A stretch of DNA of 16,920 nt. Origin: a virus. The position numbers and the translations under genes were made by a program. The notes below the pieces were generated by a model. That model saw nothing but the letters and a program-made list of their open reading frames with translations. It was not told the DNA's origin and ran no database searches. Position 1 is the first letter of the stretch. Every line of letters begins with the position of its first letter. Positions 1-16,920 of this stretch are shown in pieces. The stretch lies in IMG/VR virus record IMGVR_UViG_3300034073_003048; one strand, written 5' to 3'.

Positions 1-127
1 CCATGCTGATCCGCTCGACGCTGCTGTCGGCATCCTCGCCCGTCGACGTGCCCGACGCCCGCGTCACGCACGGCTACCGCCTGCAGTCGAGCATCCTGCC
101 CGCCGTGACCTTCGAGGTGGCGTCGAC
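1..127. repeat. Exact 127-bp terminal direct repeat, copy 1 (identical to 16794..16920); circularisation overlap
   Basis: Base-by-base comparison: ccatgctgatccgctcgacg...ttcgaggtggcgtcgac occurs at both window ends. The repeat lies inside a CDS. Confidence 0.97.
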
Positions 128-380
128 TGCGCTGGCGACCATCGGCGCCATGCGCGAGTCGGAACTGACGGTCACCTGCATATGCGACACCACGGTGGAT
201 GCCAGCGCGCTCGTCGACTACATCGAGGCGAGCGTGCTTGACACGGGCACCTACGACACCATCGACATCCACGCGCTCGTCGTGAGGTCGAAGACCGTGG
301 CGGCGCCTACCGCCGGGCTCGGCGACGAGCAGGAACCCGCCACCGCAACCCTCACCGTAACCGTTCACTGGGAGCCCTGA
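1..380 (+). CDS. Same tail terminator/completion gene, C-terminal part (5' end at 16766)
   Basis: ORF 3..380 has high GC3. Its stop at 378..380 is followed 1 nt later by the ATG of the major tail gene. Confidence 0.55.
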   Translation, partial: MLIRSTLLSASSPVDVPDARVTHGYRLQSSILPAVTFEVASTALATIGAMRESELTVTCICDTTVDASALVDYIEASVLDTGTYDTIDIHALVVRSKTVAAPTAGLGDEQEPATATLTVTVHWEP

Positions 381-381
381 T

Positions 382-765
382 ATGGCCGTCTACAACACAT
401 CCGGATGCACGCTCTCCGTCGGCGGCACCGCTCTCGCCAACCTCATCGACGCCACGGTCGAGCTCTCCATCGAGACCATCGACGTGACCGAGATCGGCAA
501 CCTGGACCGCAAGTACATCGCGGGCATCCGCACGGGAACCATCTCGGGCAACATCTTCTACGACCAGAACAACGCGCAGATCGCCGCGCTAGAGGCAGCG
601 GTCAAGTCTGGATCGACCGTGGCATTCGTGTTTACCCTGCACAACGCCGCCACCTACACCGCAAACGCGATCATCACCAGCTTCTCGCCGAACATCGCGG
701 TCGCGGACGTGGTCCGCGCGTCGTTCTCCGCGCAGATCACGGGCGAGGTCACCATCAGTGCCTGA
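382..765 (+). CDS. Major tail (tube) protein, small TP901-1/phi13/GTA-like type (127 aa)
   Basis: The pattern ...IETIDVTEIGNLDRKYIAGIRTGTISGNIFYD...YTANAIITSF...ASFSAQITGEVTI is typical of short siphovirus tube proteins. It lies directly upstream of the chaperone and tape measure genes. Confidence 0.7.
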   Translation: MAVYNTSGCTLSVGGTALANLIDATVELSIETIDVTEIGNLDRKYIAGIRTGTISGNIFYDQNNAQIAALEAAVKSGSTVAFVFTLHNAATYTANAIITSFSPNIAVADVVRASFSAQITGEVTISA

Positions 766-1042
766 CATCCGCGCCATCCTGAGCCTGCAGCCCATCGAGG
801 CCGAGTGGTCCGGCTGCAGGTTCCGCATCTCGCGGCCGACGCTGGCGGATCTCGTCGAGGCGGTCGACGTGAACGCGAAGAGCCCCGAGAACGCGCGCGC
901 GTGGTGCCTGTACCGGCACTGCCAGGACACGGATGGAAAGCCGCTGTTCGCCGACGTGGCCGACGCCATGGCGGCGCCGGCGGGATTCGCTGCCAAGGTG
1001 GTCCCGCAGATCGAGGCGTTGTACAACGAAGGGGTGGACTAG
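758..1042 (+). CDS. Tail assembly chaperone (gpG-like), 94 aa
   Basis: The GTG start overlaps the upstream stop (GTGCCTGA). It occupies the canonical position between the tube protein and the tape measure. The call is mainly positional. Confidence 0.5.
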   Translation: MPDIRAILSLQPIEAEWSGCRFRISRPTLADLVEAVDVNAKSPENARAWCLYRHCQDTDGKPLFADVADAMAAPAGFAAKVVPQIEALYNEGVD

Positions 1043-1171
1043 GCCGGGACGCGCGCGCGCTGCTCGCGCGTGTCCTGAGGAACAGGCGTGCAGCACCATG
1101 GGAGCGCTCGGTACTTGAGCTCATCATCGAGCTCGACGTGCCGGACTACAAGGCGATCAGGAGAAGGCTCG

Positions 1172-1792
1172 ATGAACTCGGCAACACTGGAGTTTCGCCC
1201 AAACCCGCAGGACATCATCCGAATCCAAAACGCCCTGGGCCAATTCGAGGTCAAGGTGCAGGACCAGATCGCGCGGAAGGCGCTGCGGGCGTATGCCAAG
1301 GACGTGATACGGGCGGCACGCGCCCACACGCCGATCAGGAACGGCTACACCGTCACCAGTCTGGCCTCGAAAGTCAAGGCATGGCCTAACGGCATGGCAT
1401 GGGCCGCCATCAATTACAAGGGGCTCGGCCGGAAGCAGAGCAGCGCCACGGGCGCCGGCCGCCTGCGCAGGAAGCAGTACGACGCCGAGGGCGTGGGGTG
1501 GCGCACCCATTTCACCGAACTCGGTTTCCATTCCTGGCCGAAGACTCGAATCAACCTGAGGCGCGGAGTCGAGGGCGGTGGCGGCAAGGGGTGGAAGAAG
1601 GGCCAATACCACCGCGGCAGCGGCCAGTACCACCGCGGCACCATGGCCACCGTGATCGCGCAGACCGCGATGACGGGCAGGCTTATTCCCCACCTTCAGG
1701 CGGCGATCCGTGACGCGATGATCCAGGTCGAGAAGGGCAAGGGCGCGCAGCCACCGCAGAAGGCGCGCCGGATCTCGCTGGAGGCTGCATGA
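1172..1792 (+). CDS. HK97 gp10-family head-tail protein with a Gly/basic insertion (206 aa)
   Basis: ATG 1172 is preceded by AGGAG. The motifs ...KALRAYAKDVIRAARAHTPIRNGYTVTSL... and ...HFTELGF... resemble the gp10-family signature (kaa..v...ak..aP..tG.L..si, EfGT). The longer ORF starting at 1088 has poor GC3 in its upstream part. Confidence 0.5.
   Translation: MNSATLEFRPNPQDIIRIQNALGQFEVKVQDQIARKALRAYAKDVIRAARAHTPIRNGYTVTSLASKVKAWPNGMAWAAINYKGLGRKQSSATGAGRLRRKQYDAEGVGWRTHFTELGFHSWPKTRINLRRGVEGGGGKGWKKGQYHRGSGQYHRGTMATVIAQTAMTGRLIPHLQAAIRDAMIQVEKGKGAQPPQKARRISLEAA
1601..1642 (+). repeat. In-frame 21-bp tandem duplication (2 copies, 2 mismatches) encoding GQYHRGS/GQYHRGT
   Basis: ggccaataccaccgcggcagc (1601..1621) is followed directly by ggccagtaccaccgcggcacc (1622..1642). 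Confidence 0.9.
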
Positions 1793-2466
1793 AACTGCCG
1801 ACGATGAATGTTGACGTCAAGGTCAACACGAAGAACATGCAGCGCGATCTGGAGAACGCGAAGAAGCAGATGCGCGCCGTCGGCAAGCAGGGACTCGCGG
1901 CGGCCGGCGGAACTTTCGGCAAGCTCGGAGCCTTCTCGGGTGTCGGCGGCAGCCTGGGCGGACTCGCGCTCGGCGCGGGAGCCGGCGGACTCGCCATCGC
2001 GGCGCCGTTCATGATCGCGGGCAAGATCGTCGACAACTTCGCCACGACGATGAAGACCGCAGAGCAGACGCTGCAGGAATTCTCGACAAGCGGCAAGATC
2101 ACTACCGGGATGCTGTTGACGCAGGCGGCCGCATTGCTGCAGGCCCGCGAGGAAGGCGGAATGGGAAGGACCGGCGCAGGCTTCTTCGGCGGTTTCGGTC
2201 AGGGTTTCGCCGCAGGCGGCGCCGGTGGCCCCATGAATGAATCGGCCGAATGGCTGTCGAAGCAGGCGACATGGTTCGGCACGCTGCTCGGAGGCGCCAT
2301 CGGCGGCATCGGCGGCGGATCGGCCGAGGAGATCATCCGTCAGGCAGATCTCAGCATCGCGCAGTCGGAGGAAGAGGCGCGCGCGTTGTTCGAGCCGCAC
2401 GAACTGAAGCGGCTGGAGGCGATCATGGCGCAGTTCGCCAAGCAGCAGCGGGAGGCCACCACATGA
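1789..2466 (+). CDS. Tail tape measure protein, unusually short (225 aa)
   Basis: ATGA overlap with the upstream gene, and GGAGG upstream. It has helical ends plus central Gly/Ala-rich hydrophobic stretches (GGLALGAGAGGLAIAAPFMIAG, FFGGFGQGFAAGGAGG), and lies downstream of the chaperone. Confidence 0.65.
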   Translation: MKLPTMNVDVKVNTKNMQRDLENAKKQMRAVGKQGLAAAGGTFGKLGAFSGVGGSLGGLALGAGAGGLAIAAPFMIAGKIVDNFATTMKTAEQTLQEFSTSGKITTGMLLTQAAALLQAREEGGMGRTGAGFFGGFGQGFAAGGAGGPMNESAEWLSKQATWFGTLLGGAIGGIGGGSAEEIIRQADLSIAQSEEEARALFEPHELKRLEAIMAQFAKQQREATT

Positions 2467-3404
2467 TCGAATCAGACGATTACCGCGCATACCTCAGGGG
2501 CACGACCGCCAACCAGGGCGACATCTGGGACGTGCACACGATCACCGAGCGATGGCAGGTCGAGAAGACCGTGCTGAACGGCGCCGGCGTGGTCGAGGTC
2601 GGACCTCTTGAACCCCATTCGATCATCTACGACGCCACGCAGGGCGGCCCCGTCATCAAGAACATCGGCGAGCAGTACGGCGCGGGCACCGACTGGATGT
2701 CGGGCGCCCTGGTGCGTCGGCTGAGCTGGGGCCTGCCCGAGGGCAACAAGATTACCGTGGACGTGGAGTATTCAACGCGCTACTTCGAGAGCAAGTACGC
2801 GAAGGGCATGGGCCCGGCTGAGGAGTCGATTGAGAATGCCGTGGTGCTCGACCAAGGGCTCTTCCTGCCCTGCATGGTCATCCCGACCTTCCGCACGCGG
2901 TCGATGAAGATGTACCGCGACAACCCCGGGATGACCGGGCCGAACGCGACCAACAACCTAAGCACGTCCGACATCGGCGGCATCCAGAAGGTGCGCGACA
3001 TCGACGTGCGGCAGACGGCGCTCCGGCTGCGGTTCGTGGTCGACGTGAACAGCGGCGGAATCGACTACCTCACCGGCGTGCTGCAGGCGTACGTCGGGAA
3101 GAAGAACTCGGACGCCTTCCTAGGCTACGGCGCGCAGAACCTCATTTGCGACGGCGCCGCCATCAACCATCTGGAGCACGAATTCTACGAGGTGGTCATC
3201 GACTACCTGTACGACGAGTATTTCCATCATTCGCAGATCCTGCAGATGGACAACGACGGCAAGCCCCGCATGAACGGCGACGACTACGCCGACGTGCGCT
3301 GGGCCCGCGAGGAGCGCACGGCCGTGGCGTTCAACGACATCTGGCCGACGGGCGCGCTCGGCGAGAGCATGAAGTACCAGGCGTTCATGGGGGTCTGGTA
3401 CTGA
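2463..3404 (+). CDS. Hypothetical tail-tip/baseplate protein (313 aa; distal-tail position)
   Basis: ATGA overlap with the tape measure stop, GGGAGG upstream, high GC3. No motif recognised, so the function is positional only. Confidence 0.55.
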   Translation: MIESDDYRAYLRGTTANQGDIWDVHTITERWQVEKTVLNGAGVVEVGPLEPHSIIYDATQGGPVIKNIGEQYGAGTDWMSGALVRRLSWGLPEGNKITVDVEYSTRYFESKYAKGMGPAEESIENAVVLDQGLFLPCMVIPTFRTRSMKMYRDNPGMTGPNATNNLSTSDIGGIQKVRDIDVRQTALRLRFVVDVNSGGIDYLTGVLQAYVGKKNSDAFLGYGAQNLICDGAAINHLEHEFYEVVIDYLYDEYFHHSQILQMDNDGKPRMNGDDYADVRWAREERTAVAFNDIWPTGALGESMKYQAFMGVWY

Positions 3405-4039
3405 TGTACCGCAACCAGTACACCTTCCGCCGCGAGAAGGACCTCGACCGCGCCGCGCGGTTCCGCGAGGAGCCCGCCGGCATCGAGACCCAGCTCATGA
3501 AGGTGACGGAGGCGACCGCCCTGGCGTCGGGCGGTCCGTTCCGGTGGCTGTACACGCTCTACTTCGCCGAGATCGCCGGCAGCCCGAACTACCTGCCGCA
3601 GCTCAGGGCGAACACCTATCCGAACATCGGTTTCTCCGTGTCGGAACTGTCCAACACGGGCAGCTACTACAGCTACGGCGTGGCGAACGGCAACATCCCC
3701 GCCGGCTACCAACCGCGTCAGATCCCGCTGAATACGTACGTACTGGCGGTGCCCCACCGCGCGCAGACGGGAACGCTGTACTGGCTCATCGTCAACACGC
3801 AGGCCATCGACGGCACGTGCGAGGCGCCTCTTGTGGGCGACACGGACTACGGTACGCTTCTGATGCCGACGGCGCTCGATGACGAGTACGGCACCTTCGA
3901 CGCGCCCGAGGGCGACACGGACTACGGCACGATCAACCTCAGCGACTACGGCACGTTCGCCAACCCGACCAACGACGCCGACTACCAGACGATCACGAAC
4001 CCATACACCAATACGGTCGATTACGGAGCACTGGTCTAA
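3404..4039 (+). CDS. Minor tail protein with C-terminal (D/E)YG(T) repeats (211 aa)
   Basis: TGATG overlap at the start. The C-terminus reads GDTDYGTLL..DEYGTF..GDTDYGTIN..SDYGTF..DADYQTI..VDYGAL. Confidence 0.55.
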   Translation: MYRNQYTFRREKDLDRAARFREEPAGIETQLMKVTEATALASGGPFRWLYTLYFAEIAGSPNYLPQLRANTYPNIGFSVSELSNTGSYYSYGVANGNIPAGYQPRQIPLNTYVLAVPHRAQTGTLYWLIVNTQAIDGTCEAPLVGDTDYGTLLMPTALDDEYGTFDAPEGDTDYGTINLSDYGTFANPTNDADYQTITNPYTNTVDYGALV

Positions 4040-4962
4040 TGCCTCTCAAGCTACGCCGCGGAACCAACGCCGACAGGACGGGGATCACGCCCGCCGAGGG
4101 CGAGCCGATCTACACCACCGACACGAAGAAGCTCTACGTGGGCGACGGCACCACCGCCGGCGGCACCGAGATCGGCGGCGGCGGCACGCTCACCGTCGAC
4201 ACGCAGGACTTCACCGCGTCGGGCACCTGGACGAAGCCCGCGAACGCGCTGTGGGTCGAGGTGACCATGTGCGGGGCGGGTACCAATGGAGCGACGGGCT
4301 CGACTGGCGCAGGCGGTTCGGGAGGAAACGCCGGGCGGATCGCGCAGAAAACATTCCTGGCAAGCGCGCTCGGTTCCACGGTTTCCGTCACCTGCGGAGC
4401 ACCCGACGATCTCTACAGCCCTAGCAGCGGTTCCGTTTCCTCATTCGGCACGCATCTCTACGCAGCAGGCGGTGCCAACGGCATTGACCTGTATGGCGGC
4501 AGCACGCCTGAGTTTGTTTCCATTCAGGAGAACATGGGCGCTACTGGCGGTTTTGGGATGTTTGGCACTGGAGGAAATCCCGGACTTGCGGGACACCACG
4601 GAGCCCCAATGGGACCGGCAGCCGGCGGCGGTGGCGCGACATCTGGCGCTGGCGCCGCGGGTGGTTTGGCTGCAACGGGCAACGTGACTTCAGGCAACGC
4701 AATTGCATACGGCGGCGGCGGCGCGGGCGGCGCAAGTGGCACGACGGGTGTCGCGGGCACCGCGGGCGGATACGACACGATCACGGGCTTCGGCCACGGC
4801 GGCGGCGGCGGCGGGCAGGGCACCGCGGGCGCAGGCGGCGCCGGCGGCGCGGGCGTCCGTGGCGGCGGCGGTGGTGGCGGTGGCAAGGGCACGACCGCGG
4901 GCGGCGCCGGTGGCGCCGGCGGCGCGGGATTCGTGCGGGTTCGCACCCTTTGCTTCGGATGA
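4039..4962 (+). CDS. Tail fibre/receptor-binding protein: conserved fibre N-terminal motif plus a glycine-rich domain (307 aa)
   Basis: The N-terminus LKLRRGTNADRTGITPAEGEPIYTTDTKKLYVGDGTTAGG matches the widespread fibre/Mtd-N/HylP-type motif. It is followed by FTASGTWTKPANALWVEVTMCGAGTNG... and long GGxGGAGG tracts. Confidence 0.7.
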   Translation: MPLKLRRGTNADRTGITPAEGEPIYTTDTKKLYVGDGTTAGGTEIGGGGTLTVDTQDFTASGTWTKPANALWVEVTMCGAGTNGATGSTGAGGSGGNAGRIAQKTFLASALGSTVSVTCGAPDDLYSPSSGSVSSFGTHLYAAGGANGIDLYGGSTPEFVSIQENMGATGGFGMFGTGGNPGLAGHHGAPMGPAAGGGGATSGAGAAGGLAATGNVTSGNAIAYGGGGAGGASGTTGVAGTAGGYDTITGFGHGGGGGGQGTAGAGGAGGAGVRGGGGGGGGKGTTAGGAGGAGGAGFVRVRTLCFG

Positions 4963-4965
4963 TCC

Positions 4966-5316
4966 ATGGCACACCCAACGGACAACCCCCAGCGCGACAT
5001 CATCATCGAGAGCGGCAGCACGTTCACCATGGTGGTTACCTGGACGGGCAACGTCTCAGGCCAGAGTTTCGCCATGAAGGGACGCCCTTCCCATGGCAGC
5101 AGCACGGTCGTATTCGAACTGTCGACCCTCGAGGGCGACATTTCCGCTACCCATAGCGGCGGTGAAACCACCATCACCGTCACCATGGCCGCGACCGTCA
5201 CCGCCGGATTCACGGCGCCCCAGTACGGCGTCTACGACCTCGAGGCCACCCTGAGCGGCGTCACGACGCGCATCGCCGAGGGCACCTTCTACGTCACCCC
5301 CAACGCAACCAGATAA
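4966..5316 (+). CDS. Hypothetical beta-rich (Ig-like?) virion protein (116 aa)
   Basis: High GC3. The pattern ...YGVYDLEATLSGVTTRIAEGTFYVTPNAT is common in small phage beta-sandwich domains. It lies next to the fibre gene. Confidence 0.55.
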   Translation: MAHPTDNPQRDIIIESGSTFTMVVTWTGNVSGQSFAMKGRPSHGSSTVVFELSTLEGDISATHSGGETTITVTMAATVTAGFTAPQYGVYDLEATLSGVTTRIAEGTFYVTPNATR

Positions 5317-5625
5317 ATGGCCAAAGAACCAACGCCTACAGGAGGAACAGTGGCACGCTCATCTCTCATCGGAAACGTCTCGGCACCCGTCAGTACGGGC
5401 AGCTTCGCGCAGGTCTCGGCGAATAACGTGGCCGGCGGCGGCACGCTCTACATGGCGGCGACGGCCAACGTTGTCATCCGTTTCTCCACGGATGGTGGAA
5501 CCACGTTCCAGGAGATGACCGTCCTGTCGGCGTGGGGGCCCATCGTCCTGGGCGACATCGATCCCCGTTACATCTACGTCCGCAGCGCCGGCACCGCGAC
5601 CACCGCGCACTTCTGGTACGCCTGA
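5317..5625 (+). CDS. Hypothetical protein (102 aa; alternative GTG start at 5350)
   Basis: ATG 5317 abuts the upstream TAA. However, an in-frame GTG at 5350 has a strong AGGAGG at 5340..5345, so the start is uncertain. Confidence 0.6.
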   Translation: MAKEPTPTGGTVARSSLIGNVSAPVSTGSFAQVSANNVAGGGTLYMAATANVVIRFSTDGGTTFQEMTVLSAWGPIVLGDIDPRYIYVRSAGTATTAHFWYA

Positions 5626-5626
5626 G

Positions 5627-5809
5627 ATGGATGTAGCAACGCTCGCCGGCGCCCTGGGCATCATCGCGTCCGTGGTCACGACCACGATGGTTGTCGTTGG
5701 CAAGCTGACGCGCGTCGAGGTCATGCTCGCCGAGCTGCGCGCGACGATGAACCACTACGACAAGAGGCTCGCCGACCTCGAAAGGAAGCACCATGAAAGG
5801 CAACCGTAA
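5627..5809 (+). CDS. Small membrane protein: N-terminal TM helix plus charged coiled-coil tail (60 aa); lysis-associated (i-spanin-like or holin-like) candidate
   Basis: VATLAGALGIIASVVTTTMVVVG is followed by KLTRVEVMLAELRATMNHYDKRLADLERKHHERQP. Confidence 0.5.
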   Translation: MDVATLAGALGIIASVVTTTMVVVGKLTRVEVMLAELRATMNHYDKRLADLERKHHERQP

Positions 5810-5960
5810 GACCACCCTCGCCGGCATCGCCGCCATCCTGACCGCCGCGGCGGGCATCCTGAACGGGTGGCCCGACGCCGTCGACTGGACCGCGGCCGTC
5901 TCGGCGATCATCGCCGGCGTCGGCCTGATCATGGCGCGGGACGCCCAGAAGGGTGATTGA
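5793..5960 (+). CDS. Two-TM small membrane protein, holin-like (55 aa; below the ORF-track cutoff)
   Basis: Read by hand: the ATG is preceded by GAAAGGAAG. Translation: MKGNRKTTLAGIAAILTAAAGILNGWPDAVDWTAAVSAIIAGVGLIMARDAQKGD. It overlaps the previous gene by 17 nt and has high GC3. Confidence 0.5.
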   Translation: MKGNRKTTLAGIAAILTAAAGILNGWPDAVDWTAAVSAIIAGVGLIMARDAQKGD

Positions 5961-6232
5961 ACGTGTACTCACGGAAATCGCGGTCGCCATCCTGCGGCAC
6001 TACGCGCGGCGCGAGCGCGCCGTCGACGCCGACACGGATGGCCGCCGCGCTCGCGCTGCCGCTGCTGTGCGCGAGTGGCTGCGGAGAAACGGTCCTGGTG
6101 AGGCGGGGGACGCCGGTCAGGATCGCTGAGCCCGTCCACGTCTACACGCTCGAAGGCGGCGAGTGGGTGCGCAGCGCGAACCGCGTCGACGTGCGCGGTT
6201 GGTACGCCGTGAGCCCCGAGGAAGTCGAGTGA
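5957..6232 (+). CDS. Putative secreted lipoprotein (o-spanin-like or exclusion-type); start at TTG 5957 or ATG 6038
   Basis: ...TRMAAALALPLLCASGCGE... has a hydrophobic core followed by an ASGC lipobox-like site. TTG 5957 forms a TTGA overlap with the upstream stop. GC3 is very high from 6038 onward. Confidence 0.5.
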   Translation: MNVYSRKSRSPSCGTTRGASAPSTPTRMAAALALPLLCASGCGETVLVRRGTPVRIAEPVHVYTLEGGEWVRSANRVDVRGWYAVSPEEVE

Positions 6233-6909
6233 GCACGTCGCGGTGCTGCTGCGGCGGCGGCGGCCTGCCGGCCTGCGGCGAGTGCCCGTGCAGCGCCAAC
6301 ATCTACAGCGTGCGTTGGTCGGGATCGTACGATCTCATCGACGCGAATCTCTGCCCCGCGTGCGGCAGCAGCAATGTCTTCCGCGCGCCCAACACCACGC
6401 ATTCCGATGGCGCCACGCGCGTGTTGTCCCCCATCGGCATTGGCACGTGCCGCGATGTCTACGCCGAGTATTCCAAGATCCATCCGCAGTACACGCCGCC
6501 TGCATTCTGCAGCGGTTCCTGCACTGGGCCGCAGAACAGTCAAACCAGATCCACCTACACACTGATCAAGCCAGATCAGTTCACTGGAACAAACAACGAC
6601 ATAAACCGATGCGAGTGGCAGGCGAGGTTGGTACTGGCGCAGACGCGTTCCGTCAATTGTTTGTTGACTCCGGTTATCAATGGGTTGTGGAGTCTGGTGG
6701 GACTTTTCCGAAAGGACTACGTGTCGTGCGCAGCTCCTGGCGCCCTGGTGTTCGAAAGGTTTGTGTGGATAACCACCGACGGCAATTTCCAGACGGTGGA
6801 ACTTGCATACAACCCCGGTGATCTGATCGTGCGAGCGGGATGCAACTTTGGCAATAGTGTCGCATACGCCAACATCTACGCCACCGCGGGAACGCTGGAG
6901 ATCCTGTGA
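6229..6909 (+). CDS. Cysteine-rich hypothetical protein (226 aa, 15 Cys), N-terminal CCCGGGG...CGECPC...CPAC cluster; compositionally atypical
   Basis: GTGA overlap at the start. The frame stays open although GC falls to about 47-60% per 60-nt line across 6540..6900, against a clearly higher background. Confidence 0.65.
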   Translation: MSTSRCCCGGGGLPACGECPCSANIYSVRWSGSYDLIDANLCPACGSSNVFRAPNTTHSDGATRVLSPIGIGTCRDVYAEYSKIHPQYTPPAFCSGSCTGPQNSQTRSTYTLIKPDQFTGTNNDINRCEWQARLVLAQTRSVNCLLTPVINGLWSLVGLFRKDYVSCAAPGALVFERFVWITTDGNFQTVELAYNPGDLIVRAGCNFGNSVAYANIYATAGTLEIL

Positions 6910-8837: not shown

Positions 8838-9347
8838 ATGCTCAGACGCGCAGCGCAGCGAATGGCCGATCTGATTCGGGAGGGTGTCGCGCCGGCAGTG
8901 GCCGCGACGATGGCAGCAGAGGAAGCGGGACTGGAGGCGGGGAAGGTGGGCGCCGAGTGCGCGGCCATCCGAGCCGAGATCGAGGCCCAGCGCCGGCTTG
9001 AACTGGGGCAGCTGACGGACCAGCAGGCCCGCGACCACCTCAGGGAGCACCTGGCGACCCGCACCGACATCGACCGCGACATCCGAAGGGTGGCCGGCAA
9101 GGTGTTCTACGAAGTCATGCGCGCGGGCCGAGGCTCTGGCAACATCTCCGAGGCGTTCATCGAGCACGCCCACGACCTCGACGCCGAGCAGAGCGTGCAG
9201 GTCCAGTACCTGCTCGTCCAGCTCTGGCGGAAGTTGCCGCCGGGCTACGACCCGCGGACGCCCAGGAAGGCGACCATCGGCCGCGATTCGTTCATGTGGC
9301 CCGAGATGGAGATGTCGGCGTTCTACAGGTGGATCCCCAATGGATGA
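8838..9347 (+). CDS. Hypothetical helical protein (169 aa)
   Basis: ACGGAGG is 7 nt upstream of ATG 8838. High GC3. It overlaps the helicase gene start by 8 nt. Confidence 0.7.
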   Translation: MLRRAAQRMADLIREGVAPAVAATMAAEEAGLEAGKVGAECAAIRAEIEAQRRLELGQLTDQQARDHLREHLATRTDIDRDIRRVAGKVFYEVMRAGRGSGNISEAFIEHAHDLDAEQSVQVQYLLVQLWRKLPPGYDPRTPRKATIGRDSFMWPEMEMSAFYRWIPNG

Positions 9348-10347
9348 GGCGCCCATCTTCCTGACGCCGCCCGACCTGTCCAAGGGCCCGCCGAGCCTGC
9401 GGCCGCCCGTCGTGGACGGCCTGTTCCGCAGGGGCGAGGTGGTGAACTGGATCGCATCGCCCAAGGTCGGCAAGACGTGGATGCTCTACCGGCTGCTGCT
9501 GGCCATCTGCACGGGCTCGGAATGGCTCGGCAGGCAGGTCACCAAGGGCCGCGTCCTGCTGATCGACAACGAGCTTCACCCCGAGACGGGCCTCCAGAGG
9601 CTCCACAAGGTCGCTACAGGCGTCGGAGCGGATTTGGCGGCCGTGGATACCTCCATGCGGTGCGCGTGGCTCAGAGGGGCATCTGCGGGCCTGGAACAGA
9701 TCGAGGCGGCCGTGAGGTCCGAGCCGAGGGGTACGTACGCCGTGATCGCCCTGGACGCCTTCTACCGGCTCATCCCGAAGGGCACCGACGAGAACGCCAA
9801 CGGCGACATGGTCCAGATCTACAACCACCTCGACCGGATCGCCGCGGCGTCGGGGGCGTCGATCATCAACGTGCACCATGCGTCCAAGGGCGACCAGAGC
9901 CAGAAGGGGACCACGGACGTGGGCTCGGGCGCCGGCGCGATCTCGCGGGCGGTGGACACCCACATCGTCTACCTGCGGCACGCGACCGAGGGGTGCGTCA
10001 CCATGCGGGCGGTCTGCCGCAGCTTCCCGCCGCCCAAGGCGACCGTCCTGCGCGTTTCCCCGCCCGACGTGACCGTCGAGGCCGACTTGGATCCCGATGA
10101 CCTCTGGACGCCCAAGAAGGCCGCCAAGGGCGCCCAGCGCGAATGGACGCCCGAGGAATTCGCCGCCACGTTCATCGACGGCAAGGCGTCCAAGGGCGAG
10201 GTGATCGACCGGGCCGTCGGCTACGGCATCTCGCGCACCAAGGCGAGGGAGATCCTCAAGGGAGCGCTCGACATGGATCTCGCGGAAGCCGTTGTCTCCA
10301 AGGACACCTCTGCGGGGCGTCCCAAGCAGCTGCTTCGAAGGTGCTAA
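9340..10347 (+). CDS. RepA-like (AAA_25/RecA-fold) P-loop NTPase, probable replicative helicase (335 aa)
   Basis: Walker A IASPKVGKTW and Walker B-like RVLLIDNE / AVIALDAF. The IINVHHASKG motif is typical of RepA/AAA_25 proteins. Confidence 0.7.
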   Translation: MDEAPIFLTPPDLSKGPPSLRPPVVDGLFRRGEVVNWIASPKVGKTWMLYRLLLAICTGSEWLGRQVTKGRVLLIDNELHPETGLQRLHKVATGVGADLAAVDTSMRCAWLRGASAGLEQIEAAVRSEPRGTYAVIALDAFYRLIPKGTDENANGDMVQIYNHLDRIAAASGASIINVHHASKGDQSQKGTTDVGSGAGAISRAVDTHIVYLRHATEGCVTMRAVCRSFPPPKATVLRVSPPDVTVEADLDPDDLWTPKKAAKGAQREWTPEEFAATFIDGKASKGEVIDRAVGYGISRTKAREILKGALDMDLAEAVVSKDTSAGRPKQLLRRC

Positions 10348-10382: not shown

Positions 10383-10390
10383 GAGATGGC

Positions 10391-10462: not shown

Positions 10463-10837
10463 ATGTCCGGGATGCAGAGACGGAAAGGCGCCGTCGGCGA
10501 GCGCGAGGTGGTCGCCGAGTTCGACCGCCACGGGATGCTCGCCCACCGCACAGCCCAGAGGATGGGCAAGGCAGGCGACGCAGCCGACGTGCAGGTGGCG
10601 GGGCTCGACGTGCACATCGAGGTCAAGCGCACCGAGAACCTCGCCTGGCGCAAGACCATCGCCCAGGCGACGAACGACGCCCAGGGTGGGCCATGGATCG
10701 TTCTCCACCGGGTGAACGGCGGCAAGTGGATGGTGATACAGCCCCTCGACCAATGGGTGGCCGACAGCGTGGCGGCACACTGCGCCATCGCCCATCGCAG
10801 GGAGCTTATGGAAAGGGCAGCTGGTGAGAGTCTTTAA
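10463..10837 (+). CDS. PD-(D/E)xK nuclease, Hjc-type Holliday-junction-resolvase-like (124 aa)
   Basis: GGGAGGG upstream. The pattern QRRKGAVGEREVVAEF...GDAADVQV...DVHIEVKRTE shows RKG..ER plus D..ExK. Confidence 0.55.
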   Translation: MSGMQRRKGAVGEREVVAEFDRHGMLAHRTAQRMGKAGDAADVQVAGLDVHIEVKRTENLAWRKTIAQATNDAQGGPWIVLHRVNGGKWMVIQPLDQWVADSVAAHCAIAHRRELMERAAGESL

Positions 10838-11102
10838 GCACACCATTCCCTCCATGGGCAAGGTGAAGCAGCCCCTACCGGAAGGCAAGCGGCTCACTGG
10901 GTGCAGGTGGACCATCCTGCGCAACAGGTTCATAAGGGCCAATCCCCTATGTGCCAAGTGTGGCAAGGTGGCCGAGCAGGTGCACCACGTCATCCCCCGA
11001 GCACAACGGCCCGACCTGACCTACGTGTGGGACAATCTCATGTCCATATGCACCGATTGCCACGTGAAAGAGCACAACGCGCACGAAAAACCGCGTTTTT
11101 GA
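10824..11102 (+). CDS. HNH endonuclease (terminase-associated)
   Basis: CAKCG...QVHHVIPRAQRPDLTYVWDNLMSICTDCHVKEH. It lies immediately upstream of the large terminase. GTG 10824 (GAAAGGG upstream) is preferred over ATG 10854. Confidence 0.8.
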   Translation: MRVFKHTIPSMGKVKQPLPEGKRLTGCRWTILRNRFIRANPLCAKCGKVAEQVHHVIPRAQRPDLTYVWDNLMSICTDCHVKEHNAHEKPRF

Positions 11103-11190
11103 GTCAAAAATGAGGTTTTTGCATGGGCATCAAAAAATCGGCAAAAAATGAGGGTGGGGGGGTAGGTTTTGGGCGGTCAGGGGCCCCTAA
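11081..11190. promoter_or_regulatory. Phased A5/T5 tracts plus a G-run: candidate packaging (cos/pac) or terminase recognition region
   Basis: A5 at 11086, T5 at 11096, A5 at 11106 and T5 at 11116 (exact 10-bp phase). A6 at 11132 and 11143. CAAAAA(A)TGAGG occurs twice. GGGTGGGGGGGTAGGTTTTGGGCGGTCAGGGG lies at 11152..11183. Confidence 0.35.
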
Positions 11191-12850
11191 GGTGCCGCCT
11201 GTAAACTCGGAAGCCAAAACACACGCGAAAACGGTCGTTCTTGAGTACAACCGTCGCGTACTGTCGGGATCTGCGCCGAACTCGAAATGGATCTTTGCCG
11301 CGGCGCAGCGTTTCGAGCGCGATCTCGCGCGATCCGACCTGCGGATGAACTGGGACAGGGTGGAGGAGATCGACCAGTTCGTGCGCACGCTGCCGCTGCT
11401 CGACGATTACGCCGGCGAGCCGTTCGTGCTGCACCCATGGCAGGTCTGGGTGACCGCCCAGCTGTTCGGATGGGAGTGGCAGGACGGCACCAGACGGATC
11501 AAGACGGCCATCCTGCAGGTGGCGAGAGGCAACGGCAAGACCACGCTTGCCGCCGCGCTGGCGCTCTGGGAGTTCCTGAGCGGCCCCGGTAGGCGTGTGC
11601 ACGTGATCGCCAACAAGGAACTGCAGGCGCTCATCTGCGTACAGAAGGCGCAAGAGATGCTGCGGGGGCGTGAAACCGACGGCGTGAAGGTGCTCCACAA
11701 CCGCATCGAGGATCGGAACCGCGACTGCCTCATGTCGGCGCTGAAGAAATCGGCCAGAAGCCTGGACGGTCTGACGCCGTCCATGTGGATCGGCGATGAG
11801 GTCGCCGAGTTCGCCGACCGGGACATCCTGGCGAAGCTGGAGACCACCGCGCACAAGCGCCGGAACAGTCTGGGGCTCATCATCTCGACGCCCGCCGCGG
11901 ACGCCGAGGGCTTGTTCAGCGAGAAGGTGGCCGCCGGGCAGCGGATTCTGAGCGGCGAGGAGGAGGACGATTCCACGATGCCACTGCTGTTCGGCATCGA
12001 CAAGGAAGACGATCTCGGCGACGAAGGCTGCTGGGCGAAGGCCAACCCCGCCATGGAGCATGGGCAGCCCAACATCCGCGACCTGAAGACGATGTGGAAC
12101 GCGAAGAAGGGCAGCGCCATCGGGCGCGCCGAGTTCTCGCGCTACATCTGCGCCAGGACGGGCGAGGAGACGGGCAACTGGCTCGACATGGCGCTCGCCT
12201 GGACGCCGACCGAGATCGACTGGGCGGCGCTGCGCGGCCGGCGGGCGTGGCTCGGGCTCGACCTGAGCAAGAACCTCGATCTGTCGGCGCTCGTCGTGGC
12301 CGTTCCCCTGGACGATGGGCGGGTGGCGCTCCGCGGCCACTACTGGTGGCCGTCCGAGGACGTGCGGCAAAGGGAACTGGACTACCGCCTGCCTGTCAGG
12401 AACTGGGCGGCCAAGGGGCACGTGGAGCTTACCGTCGGCCGCGAGATCGACTACACCCGGATCATGGCCACGCTGGAGGCCATCGCCGGCGAGTTCCAGG
12501 TCGCCAGCGTGGCGTACGACAAGTGGGGCGCCAAGATGTTCGCCGAGCAGGCGGTGTCCAAGGGCCTGCCGCTGGAAACCTACTCGCAGGGCATCGCCAC
12601 GATGGGCCCGGGGTGCCAGCTGTTCCAACAGCTCTGGGTGGGCCGCAAGTTCGTCGTGGGCGATGATCCGATCCTCCGCAACGCCTGCGCGGTCGCGGTC
12701 CCGATCCGCGACACGAACGGCAACATCAAGGTGAACAAGTCGAAGCGCACCCACATCATCGACCCGCTGGTGGCGGCCATCATGGCGGTGCACGCCTGGG
12801 GCGGCGAGACGGCGACATCGTGGGAGTTCCTGCGGGACGCCGATATCTGA
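11123..12850 (+). CDS. terL: Terminase large subunit (Terminase_1 type)
   Basis: PFVLHPWQVWVTAQLFGWEW..GTRRIKTAILQVARGNGKTTLAAALAL (Walker A) with a nuclease half following. The first ~25 codons are AT/G-run rich, so GTG 11192 is an alternative start. Confidence 0.9.
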   Translation: MGIKKSAKNEGGGVGFGRSGAPKVPPVNSEAKTHAKTVVLEYNRRVLSGSAPNSKWIFAAAQRFERDLARSDLRMNWDRVEEIDQFVRTLPLLDDYAGEPFVLHPWQVWVTAQLFGWEWQDGTRRIKTAILQVARGNGKTTLAAALALWEFLSGPGRRVHVIANKELQALICVQKAQEMLRGRETDGVKVLHNRIEDRNRDCLMSALKKSARSLDGLTPSMWIGDEVAEFADRDILAKLETTAHKRRNSLGLIISTPAADAEGLFSEKVAAGQRILSGEEEDDSTMPLLFGIDKEDDLGDEGCWAKANPAMEHGQPNIRDLKTMWNAKKGSAIGRAEFSRYICARTGEETGNWLDMALAWTPTEIDWAALRGRRAWLGLDLSKNLDLSALVVAVPLDDGRVALRGHYWWPSEDVRQRELDYRLPVRNWAAKGHVELTVGREIDYTRIMATLEAIAGEFQVASVAYDKWGAKMFAEQAVSKGLPLETYSQGIATMGPGCQLFQQLWVGRKFVVGDDPILRNACAVAVPIRDTNGNIKVNKSKRTHIIDPLVAAIMAVHAWGGETATSWEFLRDADI

Positions 12851-12879
12851 CCTTCGGAGATTAGGACAGGGGCGCGCGC

Positions 12880-14061
12880 TTGCACACGACGGATGATCCG
12901 TGCGTGGCGCTCTCGGACCTCATCGCCAACCTGTTCCGTCGGAACTACTCGACCACGCTGCTGACCGGCAGCGCGATGGCGGTGCCGACGGTTGGTCCGT
13001 TGTCGGCGCTGCGGTACACGCCCGTCTACCGCGCGGTCACGCTCATCTCGGGCGACATCGCGCGGCTCGACTGCGAGCTGTCGGCGCCCGTCGCCGACAC
13101 GCTCTGGCGCAACCCGTCGACCTGGTGGAACGCCTTCGAGTTCCGCCGCGCGCTCCTGATGAACGCGCTGCTGTACGGCAACGGCTTCGCGCTCATCAAC
13201 CGCACCAAGGGCGGCGAGCTGCTGGAGCTGTTCCTGCTCGACAACGACAACGTGTCGCTGGACGTGACGCGCGGCACCCCGACGTACACGATCCGCGGCT
13301 ACCCGGACATCCCCGCGTCGGACGTGCTGCACGTGCGCGCGCCGTCGACGAGCGGCCTGTGGGGCGAGTCGCCCATCAACCTGTGCCGCACGTCCATCCA
13401 GATCCTCGCGTCCCAGGAGGCGATGGCGCTGACGGCGTACCAGAACGCCGGCAACCCGAAGATCGCCATCATCCACCAGCGCGCCATCGATGAGGCGCTG
13501 ATGCAGAAGGTGGAGAACTACTACATGAAGCGCCACGGCGGCGCCGAGAACGCGGGCAAGCCCGTCGTCCTGGGCGACGGCGTCAAGATCGAGCGCATCT
13601 CGTCGACCGTCGACGACACGGGCCTCGAGGCCGCGCGGCGCTACTCCATCGGCGACGTGTCCCGCCTGTTCGGCGTGCCGGCGTCGTACCTCGCCGAGGA
13701 TGTCGGATCGTCGTACGGCTCGATGGAGTGGCTGTCCAGGATGTACGTGGACGGCTGCCTGCAGGCGTGGATGTCGGCGCTCGGCTCCGAGCTGCGCGCG
13801 AAGCTGATGTCGCCGTTCGATTCGGTCGTGTGGGACACCGACGCGCTGATCCGCCCGGGCGTGGCCGAGCAGATGGCCGCGCTCCGCACGGGCGTCGAGG
13901 CGGGATTCCTGACGCGGAACGAAGCCCGCGCTCGGCTCGACCTCGAGCCCCTCGAGGGCCTCGACGAGCCCACGCTCGCGCTCAACGTCGGCACGGGCGG
14001 CGGCAGCACCAACATCGGCGAGGACACGTCCGCGTCGGAGGGTTCACCGAATGATTTCTAG
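12880..14061 (+). CDS. Portal protein, HK97 family
   Basis: Size, position after terL, and typical motifs (..ALRYTPVYRAVTLISGDIARL.., ..NGFALI.., ..YQNAGNPK..). Start at TTG 12880 (AGGGG upstream) or GTG 12904. Confidence 0.85.
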   Translation: MHTTDDPCVALSDLIANLFRRNYSTTLLTGSAMAVPTVGPLSALRYTPVYRAVTLISGDIARLDCELSAPVADTLWRNPSTWWNAFEFRRALLMNALLYGNGFALINRTKGGELLELFLLDNDNVSLDVTRGTPTYTIRGYPDIPASDVLHVRAPSTSGLWGESPINLCRTSIQILASQEAMALTAYQNAGNPKIAIIHQRAIDEALMQKVENYYMKRHGGAENAGKPVVLGDGVKIERISSTVDDTGLEAARRYSIGDVSRLFGVPASYLAEDVGSSYGSMEWLSRMYVDGCLQAWMSALGSELRAKLMSPFDSVVWDTDALIRPGVAEQMAALRTGVEAGFLTRNEARARLDLEPLEGLDEPTLALNVGTGGGSTNIGEDTSASEGSPNDF

Positions 14062-14605
14062 GCGCGCCATGGGCGAGCTGGAGCAGGGCGACGGGCGGCA
14101 GCTCGTCGGCATCGCCGTGCCCTACAACCGCTGGTCGAACGAGATCACCGAGCCGGGAGTCCGCGGCACGTTCCAGGAGCGCATCGCGCCCGGCGCCTTC
14201 GGCGACCTCGCCGATTCGGACATCAAGCTGCTCTGGAACCATGAGCCCGGCGCGCTCCTCGCGCGCACGAAGAGCGGCACGCTCCGCATCAAGGACACCG
14301 CGAAGGGCCTGCGGTTCGACGCGGACCTACCCGAGACCACGCTGGGGAACGACGTGCGGGCGCTGCTCGCGCGCGGCGACCTCACGGGCGAGATGAGCTT
14401 CGGCTTCTACGCCGAGGCCGACGAGTGGAACGACAAGCGCACGCTGCGCACGGTCACGAAGGCACGGCTCGTCGAGCTGTCCGTGGTCGTGGACGCAGCG
14501 TACGGAGACCGCACAAGTTCGTCGCTACGGAGCGTTTCCGAGCGCGACAGGATGGCACGCGCGCTTCGACTGCGCGAACTGAAAGGACTGATGAAATGGA
14601 TCTGA
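14051..14605 (+). CDS. Prohead maturation protease, HK97 (S78/U35) family
   Basis: ..GIAVPYNRWS..ERIAPGAF..IKLLWNHE..GEMSFGF.. GGAGGG is 8 nt upstream, and the gene overlaps the portal stop. Confidence 0.85.
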   Translation: MISRRAMGELEQGDGRQLVGIAVPYNRWSNEITEPGVRGTFQERIAPGAFGDLADSDIKLLWNHEPGALLARTKSGTLRIKDTAKGLRFDADLPETTLGNDVRALLARGDLTGEMSFGFYAEADEWNDKRTLRTVTKARLVELSVVVDAAYGDRTSSSLRSVSERDRMARALRLRELKGLMKWI

Positions 14606-15867
14606 AGATGAAGATGGAGGAGCGCAAGAAGCTCCTCACCGACATGCAGGCGCTCAACGACCGCAAGGACTTCGGCAGCCTGGAGCGCGAGCAGTGGGAC
14701 CGCATGGACGCCCGCTACACCGAGCTCGACCGCGAGATCGAGCAGGCCCAGCGCGCCGCGCGCCTGGACGCCGAGCTGCGCAAGCCCGTCCATGAGATCG
14801 CCCCGCTGGCCGTCCGCGCGGCCGAGAAGGCGGTTGCCGCCGACTTCTCCGCGTCGGCCGAGTACCGCGCGGCGTTCGCCAAGGCGCTCCGCACCGGCGA
14901 CATGGCCGAGATCCGCGCGCTCAACACCGGCAGCAGCAACGCTCCCGTGCCCGTCGATATGCAGCGGCGCATCTGGGAGCTCATGATGAAGGAGACCCCG
15001 CTCCGCGGCCTCGCGCGCGTGTTCAACGTGGCGACGGACCAGCAGATCACCGTCGAGACGGCGATCCCCACCGGCTACCTGGTGGACGAGTCGACCACGA
15101 CCACCGACGGCTACGCATCGCCGACGAGCACGGTCACCGAGTCCACCGGCACCTTCGGCCGCAAGACCATCGGCGACTTCACCTACGCCGTCCGCTCGAA
15201 GGTGTCGTACCAGGCGTACAACGACTACATCAACGGCGGCAGCTACCTCGCCAACAAGGTCGCGCAGGCGCTCGCCCAGACCGAGGAAGGGTACCTGATG
15301 ACCGGCGACGGCTCGTCGAGCGCCACGGGCAACCCCGCGCAGCCGACGGGCGTGGTCACCGCCATCAATGCGGCCGACAACAAGTTCACCTTCACCGGCG
15401 GCTCGACCGGACAGGGGTGGACGGGCCTCACCGCGGACGCCGTGATCGAGACCGCGCACCTGGTGAGCCCGCAGTACCGCCGCGGCGGTTCGCTGCGCTG
15501 GATCATGGGTGACACGGCGGCCAAGGAGATCCGCAAGCTCAAGGACGGCTCCAACCGCTACCTCTGGCAGGTCTCCGACAACGTCGCCGAGGGCCTCACG
15601 AACGGCATCAACGGCAGCCTCTACGGCATCCCCGTGGTGATCTCGCAGTTCATGCCGACCGCGACCACCGCGGCGTCGGTCGCCTTCATCGTCGGCGATT
15701 TCTCCAACGTCGAGATCTACGACCGCGGCCCGGTCGAATTCATGCTCGACCAGTACACCGACCTGGTGAAGCTGAACGTGTTCCTGCAGACGTGGAAGCG
15801 TTCGGATCTCACCGTCATGACGGGTGCCGCGGGCTACCGCCCCTTCGCGCACGCCGAGTTCAAGTGA
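14596..15867 (+). CDS. Major capsid protein, HK97 fold, with N-terminal coiled-coil delta domain (423 aa)
   Basis: ATG 14596 follows GAAAGGA and overlaps the protease stop. The N-terminus MDLKMKMEERKKLLTDMQALN... is followed by a typical HK97-family body. Confidence 0.85.
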   Translation: MDLKMKMEERKKLLTDMQALNDRKDFGSLEREQWDRMDARYTELDREIEQAQRAARLDAELRKPVHEIAPLAVRAAEKAVAADFSASAEYRAAFAKALRTGDMAEIRALNTGSSNAPVPVDMQRRIWELMMKETPLRGLARVFNVATDQQITVETAIPTGYLVDESTTTTDGYASPTSTVTESTGTFGRKTIGDFTYAVRSKVSYQAYNDYINGGSYLANKVAQALAQTEEGYLMTGDGSSSATGNPAQPTGVVTAINAADNKFTFTGGSTGQGWTGLTADAVIETAHLVSPQYRRGGSLRWIMGDTAAKEIRKLKDGSNRYLWQVSDNVAEGLTNGINGSLYGIPVVISQFMPTATTAASVAFIVGDFSNVEIYDRGPVEFMLDQYTDLVKLNVFLQTWKRSDLTVMTGAAGYRPFAHAEFK

Positions 15868-15884
15868 GAGCATCTTTCCCCATG

Positions 15885-15916
15885 GGGTTTGCCGCCGAAA
15901 GGCGGCAGACCCTTTT
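15885..15916 (+). terminator. Strong stem-loop with GAAA tetraloop and T4 run directly after the capsid gene (terminator/attenuator)
   Basis: gggtttgccgcc-gaaa-ggcggcagaccc forms a 12-bp stem (one G-U), followed by tttt. Confidence 0.55.
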
Positions 15917-15918
15917 CC

Positions 15919-16437
15919 ATGTCGATCCCCCTGAGCACAATCAAGACCGCGCTGAAGATCGACTACAGCGACGATGACGCCGACCTGATCAGGCTCAGGG
16001 AGACGGCGACGGCGTTCGTCGAGAAGCGCACGGGCCTCGCGCTGCAGCCCCGCAGCGAGGCTCTGTACCTGTCCTGGTGGACGGACAGCCTGATCCCGGT
16101 GGCCCCGTACACCGGAATCACGCACGTCCGCTACCAGAACAGCACGAACACCCAGACCACGATGCCGTCGGGCGACTACTGGATCGACCAGACCGACGGG
16201 CCGCTGAACCTGATCAGGTTCCTGGAGCACCCCGAGATCTACGAAGGCACGGCGATCACCGTGACCTACACCGTGGGCTACAGCAACATCCCCGACCCGC
16301 TCGTCCACGCGATGATCGCGCTCGTCGGGCACTGGTACAACAACCCCGAGGCCGCGCAGCCCATCGGCCTGCAGACGGTCCCGATGTCGGTCGACGCCAT
16401 TATGGACCTCTACTCGGTCAGGAGCCAGCTCCGATGA
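15919..16437 (+). CDS. Head-tail connector/adaptor (gp6-like, Phage_connect_1 type)
   Basis: The N-terminus MSIPLSTIKTALKIDYSDDDADLIRLRETATAFVEKRTG is the typical signature of this family. It lies after the capsid gene. Confidence 0.7.
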   Translation: MSIPLSTIKTALKIDYSDDDADLIRLRETATAFVEKRTGLALQPRSEALYLSWWTDSLIPVAPYTGITHVRYQNSTNTQTTMPSGDYWIDQTDGPLNLIRFLEHPEIYEGTAITVTYTVGYSNIPDPLVHAMIALVGHWYNNPEAAQPIGLQTVPMSVDAIMDLYSVRSQLR

Positions 16438-16766
16438 TCTCGGGCGGCGTCCTGTCCCACGTGGCGACCAGGCTCGCCGCCAGCGAGGCGCAGGACGCGC
16501 TGGGAATGCGCACGGACGAGTGGACGGAATCCGGCACATTCCGGTGCGACCTGCGGAACGACTCGACCACCGAGCAGCAGTACGCCGACGGCGTGGTCGT
16601 GGTCCGTTCCTGCGAGGTCCGCGCGCGCTGGCAGGCGGTGCAGAACGTCGGGCTCACCGAGCTCGACCGGCTCGCGGTGCGCGGGCGCACGCTGCGGGTG
16701 CAGTCGATCCGCAACCTGGACGAAGCCGACCGCGTCGCCGTCATCCTCTGCGAGGAGATCACCTAA
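16434..16766 (+). CDS. Head closure/head-tail joining protein (110 aa)
   Basis: ATGA overlap, AGGAG upstream. Size, position and the ..RTLRVQSIRNLDE.. pattern fit SPP1 gp16/HK97 gp9-type proteins. Confidence 0.5.
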   Translation: MISGGVLSHVATRLAASEAQDALGMRTDEWTESGTFRCDLRNDSTTEQQYADGVVVVRSCEVRARWQAVQNVGLTELDRLAVRGRTLRVQSIRNLDEADRVAVILCEEIT

Positions 16767-16920
16767 TGGCGTCCATCGAGTCCGCCATCCGCGCCATGCT
16801 GATCCGCTCGACGCTGCTGTCGGCATCCTCGCCCGTCGACGTGCCCGACGCCCGCGTCACGCACGGCTACCGCCTGCAGTCGAGCATCCTGCCCGCCGTG
16901 ACCTTCGAGGTGGCGTCGAC
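16766..16920 (+). CDS. Tail terminator/tail completion protein (DUF3168-like), N-terminal part; continues at 1..380 across the circular junction (135 codons in total)
   Basis: ATG 16766 overlaps the TAA of the upstream gene (TAATG), with GAGGAG 8 nt upstream. The frame runs MASIESAIRAMLIRSTLLS... straight into ORF 3..380. It sits between the head-closure and major tail genes. Confidence 0.55.
   Translation, partial: MASIESAIRAMLIRSTLLSASSPVDVPDARVTHGYRLQSSILPAVTFEVAS
16794..16920. repeat. Exact 127-bp terminal direct repeat, copy 2 (identical to 1..127)
   Basis: Same as copy 1. Unique length is therefore 16,793 bp. Confidence 0.97.

Follow-up and report, generated by a model that had tools for sequence, protein, structure and literature searches.

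Origin of the 127-bp terminal overlap in a complete 16,793-bp HK97-like siphophage genome, and a probable cos site at its virion ends

The viral stretch IMGVR_UViG_3300034073_003048 (16,920 nucleotides, analysed as a whole and called the window below) begins and ends with the same 127 bp, and the question addressed here is what this identity says about the phage genome that carries it. We find that this identity arose during assembly and does not reflect a physical repeat, and that a real and complete unit of 16,793 bp (66.5% G+C) remains when one copy is trimmed. It is very probable in our judgement that this unit is the complete genome of a small HK97-like siphophage, that the overlap was produced by an assembler with k = 127, and that the real linear ends lie elsewhere, at a cohesive-end (cos) site located between the genes for an HNH endonuclease and the large terminase (TerL).

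The terminal overlap and the unit that it closes

A preliminary description, made from the letters of the window, had reported identical ends of 127 bp, and comparison of prefix and suffix confirms this: positions 1..127 equal 16794..16920 base for base, and no prefix longer than 127 nt matches a suffix, the flanks of the repeat being unlike (TGCGCTGGCG after the prefix and GCCATCCGCG before the suffix). The pair, to which no strand is assigned, is the sole exact long repeat in the window, the other repeat families being no longer than 45 nt and at most about 90% identical. At the base composition of the window, a 127-nt match by chance has a probability of about 1e-71.

The first copy (1..127) lies inside an open reading frame (ORF) of the plus strand that is interrupted by the ends of the window. 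Its 5' part occupies 16766..16920 and its 3' part 1..380, with the codons continuing in frame from 16920, which corresponds to 127, into 128. According to the ORF table, the frame thereby runs from an ATG at 16766 to a stop codon at 378..380 and comprises 135 codons. The motif GAGGAG lies 8 nt upstream of the ATG, the start overlaps the TAA of the preceding gene, and the G+C content at third codon positions (GC3) is 0.91 in the coding frame on either side of the join. The earlier claim that a 135-codon gene reads without interruption through the junction is thus upheld by continuity of both the ORF and GC3. The same gene is annotated as an ordinary internal gene in four contigs (L259, L260, L269 and L270), and its product is kept as an internal protein of about 135 aa across the whole family of relatives. 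The junction protein itself gave no direct family match in PHROGs or Pfam, and a profile search against the PDB returned a marginal best match only (E 0.6, 'Terminator protein'); its orthologues matched PF11367 (Tail_completion_gp17) in 4 of 20 cases, with a best E of 5.4e-6. As the gene sits between the head closure and tail tube genes and has these orthologue matches, its earlier labelling as a tail gene is fair. ORF continuity, orthologues and position together lead us to annotate it as a tail terminator or tail completion gene (SPP1 gp17-like, 135 aa).

The adjacency of 16793 and 1 is also found in assemblies made independently of the window. Using the capsid protein we retrieved 21 IMG/VR contigs from different samples, which are 74-91% identical to the window. 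Of these, 19 extend as far as the join, and every one of the 19 spans it within a single collinear alignment. Several contigs belong to the same strain (99.97-100% identical), and among those crossing the join are L259 (99.97%), L270 and L260. The last of these is part of the JGI contig Ga0310127_001219 (L260/L268, 30,094 bp), which is 99.99% identical to the window over the 20,375 bp compared, or 1.21 units. A Logan contig of 6,743 bp (SRR35356174_95965) runs from window 13971 through the join to 3920 with 2 mismatches, and SRR35181947_172526, also of the same strain, likewise spans it. Furthermore, the ENA contig NODE_548_length_16773_cov_174 (16,773 bp, 174x) represents the same circle rotated to 11213..11192, with 3 mismatches, no gaps and no overlap, in agreement with the unit length obtained by trimming the second copy (16794..16920). 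Given these independent same-strain and related contigs, two or more assemblies back each base of the 16,793-bp unit, the length of which is correct. Two further claims of the preliminary description, that joining the ends restores a coherent phage gene order and that the genome is complete at 16,793 bp, are accordingly borne out, the former by the adjacency seen in these assemblies and the latter by the gapless 16,773-bp contig together with those that cross the join.

The length of the overlap points to its source. The JGI metaSPAdes workflow uses k = 33, 55, 77, 99 and 127, the last being the largest, and the authors of CheckV observed that the lengths of terminal repeats in metagenomic contigs concentrate at the k values of assemblers, a circular path cut at a random place leaving a repeat of length k. 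Two relatives of the window have overlaps of such a length at other places. The first, L070 (IMGVR_UViG_3300042868_006391, 17,457 bp), shows 87-89% identity over the conserved backbone and about 70% in other parts; its 127-nt overlap is exact and its break lies near window 4500. In the second, contig 3300027746_000142 (16,620 bp), the overlap measures 128 nt, one position being mismatched, and the break falls within the gene for the AAA_25 replication protein. Overlaps of 127 or 128 nt at three unrelated loci therefore reflect the behaviour of the assembler and not that of a terminase, and the earlier suggestion that 127 is a commonly used de Bruijn k-mer length, and the overlap an assembler signature, is well founded. 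In itself the overlap is an ordinary instance of an already known artefact. In practical terms, the window is usable as a complete genome once cut down to 16,793 bp, and a '127-bp DTR' (direct terminal repeat) should neither be annotated as a biological repeat nor be used to deduce the mode of packaging.

A separate observation concerns a distant relative, L249 (Ga0180431_10010099, 10,542 bp; replication protein 41% identical), which has an exact terminal overlap of 123 nt and could likewise be a small genome that was closed, in this case by an assembler using some other k.

Contig limits and the physical ends of the virion DNA

The limits of related contigs pile up at one place in the unit. 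Three contigs from three samples and two sublineages (L003, L005 and L016) all start at the base homologous to window 11205, which directly follows a conserved 13-mer, GTGCCGCCTGTAA (11192..11204, plus strand), downstream of the HNH gene; two more (L073 and L074) begin at the same column. Searches with TerL and the replication protein widened the set of contig ends to 35 TerL-bearing IMG/VR contigs from nearer lineages and 80 from a distant lineage, the majority of which begin no more than a few dozen bases from where TerL starts. For an automated tally, the ends were anchored on a G-run followed by TA (G6-G10 in relatives, G7 at 11156..11164 on the plus strand of the window), a landmark of the cos region that is conserved across the whole family; on this scale window 11205 is position +41. 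Contig starts fall at +39..+42 in 36 of 57 distinct cases, an interval of 4 nt (binomial 2e-43), and contig ends at +28..+32, corresponding to window 11192-11195, in 8 of 14 (binomial 1e-8). In several lineages and dozens of samples, a distance of 9-10 nt separates the cluster of left starts from that of right ends.

The same arrangement is seen in individual lineages. Five contigs of the distant lineage (group D) end in CCGACGTRC or, in the case of L199, at the homologous column, and at least 12 start 10 nt after these right ends, at CACGRC, with the intervening 10 nt being present in contigs that pass through. In the lineage of the window itself, L181 (Ga0209820_1003366, replication protein 97% identical) ends in CCCTAAGGTGC, which corresponds to window 11195 and places its right end 9 nt before the common start at 11205, which for this lineage is given by L003 and L005. 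An equal gap of 9 nt separates L032 from its pass-through relative L039. Position 1 of the 30,094-bp contig Ga0310127_001219 was computed from coordinates, rather than read, to be 11205, with a predicted opening of ACTCGGAAGCC.

In end repair, 3' overhangs are removed and 5' overhangs are filled in, and cos ends are known to fall at contig limits in assemblies unless circular forms contaminate the sample. The gap of 9-10 nt combined with this behaviour of end repair argues for 3' cohesive ends, and we predict a 9-nt 3' overhang, CGCCTGTAA, at 11196..11204 of the plus strand, with the fixed virion ends at 11195 (right) and 11205 (left), 5.6 kb from the ends of the window. With such fixed ends the packaged DNA would not be circularly permuted. 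The preliminary description had spoken of a circular or circularly permuted molecule; this stands for the map and the intracellular form, and for the packaged DNA it is contradicted by the pile-up of contig ends at 11195 and 11205. More generally, the limits of public contigs can place phage termini to within a few nucleotides without recourse to reads, and in this case they indicate that a contig of the 'DTR' or 'circular' class is really a linear cos genome.

Several points weigh against this reading of the overlap and of the ends. The evidence on 1..127 and on the ends at 11195 and 11205 is indirect, coming from contigs and their limits. Within the lineage of the window a single contig defines the right end at 11195; NODE_548, from the same strain, stops 3 nt short of that position (11192) and starts 8 nt beyond the left end (11213). 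For the 30,094-bp contig, a start at 11205 is a coordinate computation only. No small terminase (TerS) was recognised, with no TerS match to any ORF in PHROGs or Pfam; the sole 'TerS' match obtained was to the HNH domain of a fusion family. Finally, the G7-G10 run 40 nt upstream of the cut may itself break assemblies, as L030 and L025 stop before it.

The last point can be extended into an alternative in which the pile-up results from failure of sequencing or assembly at the G-rich tract and the molecule is circular, as in a phage-plasmid. Such a molecule would be compatible with the AAA_25 replication gene, the lack of an integrase and the DnaA boxes found in relatives, and the G7-G10 run and a second G run both lie 10-50 nt upstream, with L025, L030 and L267 stopping before or in the tract. 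Nevertheless, right-end contigs cross the G runs and stop 28-32 nt later, which means that failure at poly-G does not explain their limits. Left-end contigs start 39-42 nt after the run, in one column, in lineages that differ in local sequence. L264, L260 and the window itself cross both the G-run and cos unbroken, and the 9-10-nt gap is what 3' cohesive ends would be expected to leave. We regard this alternative as very unlikely, though slightly less so than the others.

Headful (pac) packaging of circularly permuted DNA lacking fixed ends would account for circular assemblies with three different break points and for contigs that hold more than one unit. However, it should give at most one fuzzy end, as opposed to the sharp left and right clusters 9-10 nt apart, and the HNH gene adjoins a TerL of the HK97 type; hence it appears very improbable. 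Still less credible is a reading of the 127 bp as a genuine direct terminal repeat carried by virion DNA, comparable to the short repeats of T7 and T3. The repeat is exact and its length is near that of the shortest known repeats of this kind (131 bp in T3), but overlaps of the same length lie at unrelated positions in relatives, same-strain and related contigs run straight through 1..127, and the linear ends assembled from the same strain are at cos and not at 1/127. Moreover, the repeat lies inside a conserved ORF, and the packaging genes are of the HK97 and HNH cos type.

One candidate for a full linear genome with its overhang, L076/L030 (16,476 bp), was rejected because about 60 nt around the G runs are missing from it, and it was not used to define the ends. 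The cos region of the window (11103-11212) also contains two CAAAAA(A)TGAGG repeats (11105-11115 and 11142-11153) and a palindrome, GGGGCCCC (11180-11187). In relatives, 14 of 43 distinct spacers between the HNH gene and the G-run hold 2-4 perfect DnaA boxes (TTATCCACA / TGTGGATAA), for example L027:2340-2409, L089:5440-5507, L040:11550-11611 and L096:9870-9934. Taken over all loci retrieved, perfect boxes are rare, numbering 122 in 2.4 Mb in total. The lineage of the window has no such array in its HNH-to-cos spacer, and the single perfect box of the window, at 6764-6772, is at chance level.

The large terminase and its start codon

The large terminase gene (11192..12850, plus strand; HK97 / Terminase_1 type) is identified by PHROG 9 at 5e-109 and by PF03354 and PF20441 on the public 552-aa gene call. 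Public gene calls open it at GTG 11192, which lies within the conserved 13-mer that also holds the predicted cohesive end; the ORF thus opens a single codon ahead of the predicted right-end nick. In the sublineage of the window, no ATG, GTG or TTG occurs in the TerL frame from 11205 to 11345, yet the family conserves the residues encoded from about 11216 onwards. Canonical starts in this frame are limited to GTG 11192 and ATG 11123, both of which are upstream of 11205. The latter was rejected as the start, since a difference of one G in the length of the G run puts it out of frame in close relatives. In other sublineages an ATG for TerL is found downstream of the cut. Searches of protein look-ups for the portal (first residue L or M) and for a cut TerL of 547 aa gave no matching record.

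If GTG 11192 is the start, the right end of the virion DNA would carry the TerL start codon and the left end the remainder of the gene, and no terminase could therefore be made until the cohesive ends are joined. Extending this to the relatives, we tentatively put forward, as a possibility that falls somewhat short of even chances, a widespread and so far uncultured family of 3'-cos siphophages of miniature size (16-17.5 kb), marked by a conserved cos architecture, by a cos-split TerL in the sublineage of the window and by the lack of a recognisable TerS. The family architecture would then consist of the stop codon of the HNH gene, an optional DnaA-box array, a G7-10TA run and a cut about 40 nt downstream.

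Relatives, hosts and novelty

Nucleotide comparison of the whole unit by megablast against 50,697 phage records gave no match, and at the protein level (tblastn) the capsid and TerL are at most 31% and 30% identical, respectively, to any phage record. With only remote relatives in these records, there is no cultured reference to supply known ends. In IMG/VR, relatives of the TerL found in the distant lineage are encoded by at least 157 stretches. Near-complete contigs of the family are 15.6-18.5 kb long, those that are closed or verified being 16.4-17.5 kb, and the readable sample names point to lakes (Lake Mendota). The window is an uncultured HK97-like siphophage, probably of the 3'-cos kind, and a new member of a widespread family of 16-17.5 kb, which is abundant in metagenomes, has no cultured member and includes some of the smallest genomes among tailed phages. 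This family appears well suited to the study of a minimal HK97-type packaging system that apparently operates without a small terminase.

Three contigs exceed one unit: Ga0310127_001219 (30,094 bp), Ga0310126_0005054 (L261; 18,600 bp) and IMGVR 3300042866_001699 (L157+L167; 26,900 bp). They contain 1.1-1.8 tandem units of this phage or of relatives, the 26,900-bp contig joining two copies that are about 90% identical, and when taken at face value they would inflate estimates of genome size. The preliminary description had named host flanks as the sign of a larger replicon; these were looked for and none were found, nor was an integrase. A scan of 185,579 species genomes returned only five small contigs of metagenome-assembled genomes (MAGs), with no isolate genome matching and no host flanks. 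Non-phage flanks were likewise missing from all loci alignable to the window or having the cos architecture in common with it. That the window is part of a prophage, or of a tandem array in a chromosome or plasmid, can be set aside as highly implausible, as the contigs longer than one unit, which might have suggested it, hold only repeats of the phage unit or two strains of it, neither non-phage flanks at these loci nor an integrase were found, and the genome scan yielded only contradictory MAG contigs.

The five MAG contigs (GenBank; L174-L178) are labelled as Crocinitomicaceae, Alphaproteobacteria, Pirellulales, Gemmatimonas and Bifidobacterium, and the starts of three lie at the TerL end or close to it. 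These contradictory labels probably reflect contamination during binning, and we assign no host.

Gene content of the unit

Annotation of the window ORFs with PHROGs and Pfam, with Pfam labels taken also from identical public proteins, yields a compact gene map. Practically all coding is on the plus strand, as seen in a GC3 frame plot and the ORF table, and this is the strand of all the genes described here. Head genes follow TerL: the portal (12880..14061; PHROG 12 at 3e-72, PF04860), a prohead protease of the S78, HK97 type (14069..14605; PHROG 80 at 2e-38, PF04586), the major capsid protein of the HK97 fold family (14596..15867; PHROG 10 at 3e-59, PF05065), and, within 15919..16766, a head-tail adaptor (15919-16437) and a head closure protein (16434-16766), supported by PHROG 442 at 3e-22, PHROG 25 at 1e-5 and PF05521.

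Beyond the junction gene lie the major tail tube protein (382..765; PHROG 158 at 2e-11, PF06199 at 6e-9) and, on the basis of a weak match (PHROG 344 at 4e-3) and its position after the tube gene, a putative tail assembly chaperone-like protein (758..1042). The distal tail module (1789..4962; PF18454 at 5e-13) is syntenic in all relatives and comprises a 225-aa Gly-rich possible tape measure protein, genes of 313 and 211 aa that carry no functional label, and a 307-aa Gly-rich fibre with an N-terminal Mtd_N domain recognised by Pfam (4039-4962). GC3 drops in the fibre gene from above 0.9 to about 0.65, positions 4281-4710 are unalignable with relatives, and the circular contig L070 is broken here. 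Because of the GC3 drop and the unaligned segment, this stretch looks like a hypervariable receptor-binding region.

Further downstream, gene calls and sequence features delineate a trio of small membrane proteins and lipoproteins (5627..6232): a 60-aa protein with an N-terminal transmembrane (TM) helix and a coiled coil, a 55-aa protein with two TM helices, and a 64-aa protein with a signal sequence and the lipobox LLCASG|C. Judging from these features the trio resembles the lysis cassette of a phage of diderm hosts; no endolysin was recognised near it. The ORFs between 6229 and 9347 received no label from PHROGs or Pfam. One of them (6229-6909) encodes a 226-aa Cys-rich protein that starts with MSTSRCCCGGGGLPACGECPC and has no family match; the 3' half of its gene has a GC3 of 0.64-0.70 and holds the DnaA box at 6764-6772. 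The replication protein (9340..10347; PF13481 at 4e-29, PHROG 2597 at 2e-36) is of the AAA_25 type (RepA / DnaB-like, primase-helicase family), and it is followed by a RusA-like / PDDEXK-like nuclease (10463..10837; PHROG 244 at 4e-13) and, directly upstream of cos, by the HNH endonuclease (10854..11102; PHROG 144 at 7e-17, PF01844 on an identical public protein). In the 16.8 kb of the unit neither PHROGs nor Pfam identified an integrase, an endolysin or a small terminase, and the window has no tRNA genes.

A proposed cycle

Homology and contig limits suggest how these elements might work together. Linear DNA with 9-nt 3' cohesive ends would be injected, and the ends would anneal and be ligated, whereby the terminase ORF would be rejoined. 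The resulting circle might replicate by means of the AAA_25 protein, possibly with host DnaA in those relatives that carry DnaA-box arrays beside cos. Concatemers would then be cut at cos by TerL, presumably helped by the HNH protein, through staggered nicks predicted at 11204/11205 on the top strand and 11195/11196 on the bottom strand, and packaged unit by unit.

The contrasting forms of the contigs could follow from such a cycle. Metagenomes of infected cells would contribute cos-spanning reads, and these would give rise to closed circles, such as the window, L070 and the 16,620-bp contig, or to contigs of more than one unit; samples dominated by particles would give linear contigs bounded by cos. 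For the window, a de Bruijn assembler with a final k of 127 would have walked a closed path and printed its last k-mer twice, the path being closed because the sample held joined genomes, either ligated cohesive-end circles or replication concatemers.

Comparison with known systems

With the assembler-derived 'DTR contigs' in the sense of CheckV and IMG/VR, the window shares the exact repeat of length k, the arbitrary break point and the closed genome. There is no difference of substance, save that the template here would be a cos phage, for which the circle is the map and not the virion form. The short direct terminal repeats of T7 and T3 are of a like order of length (131 bp in T3), but the repeat of the window is not conserved in position among relatives, is intragenic, goes together with other packaging machinery and is run through by other contigs.

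Very small siphophages have been cultured, including Rhodococcus phage RRH1 (about 14 kb) and the Microbacterium phages of cluster EE (about 17 kb), which combine genomes of 14-17 kb with an HK97-like head module. The window resembles them in its minimal tailed-phage genome and HK97-like head, and has no nucleotide match to any of the phage records searched. Phage-inducible chromosomal islands that form capsids (cf-PICI), which are satellites, are of similar size and carry an HK97-like head and packaging module with an HNH gene; the window differs from them in having a full tail module and its own replication gene, and in having no integrase and no chromosomal flanks.

A further parallel is with HK97 itself, in which the DNA has 10-nt 3' overhangs and the HNH protein gp74 stimulates cos cleavage by TerL (gp2). 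The HK97 genome is much larger (about 39 kb as against 16.8 kb), and in the window the overhang is predicted to be 9 nt long, no TerS is recognised, TerL directly follows cos, and the start codon in its sublineage lies upstream of the nick. The two have in common an HNH gene beside cos and TerL, a TerL with PF03354 and PF20441, the gene order of portal, S78 protease and HK97-type capsid, and fixed ends, which in the present case are read from the limits of contigs; the predicted 3' overhang would likewise be close to 10 nt.

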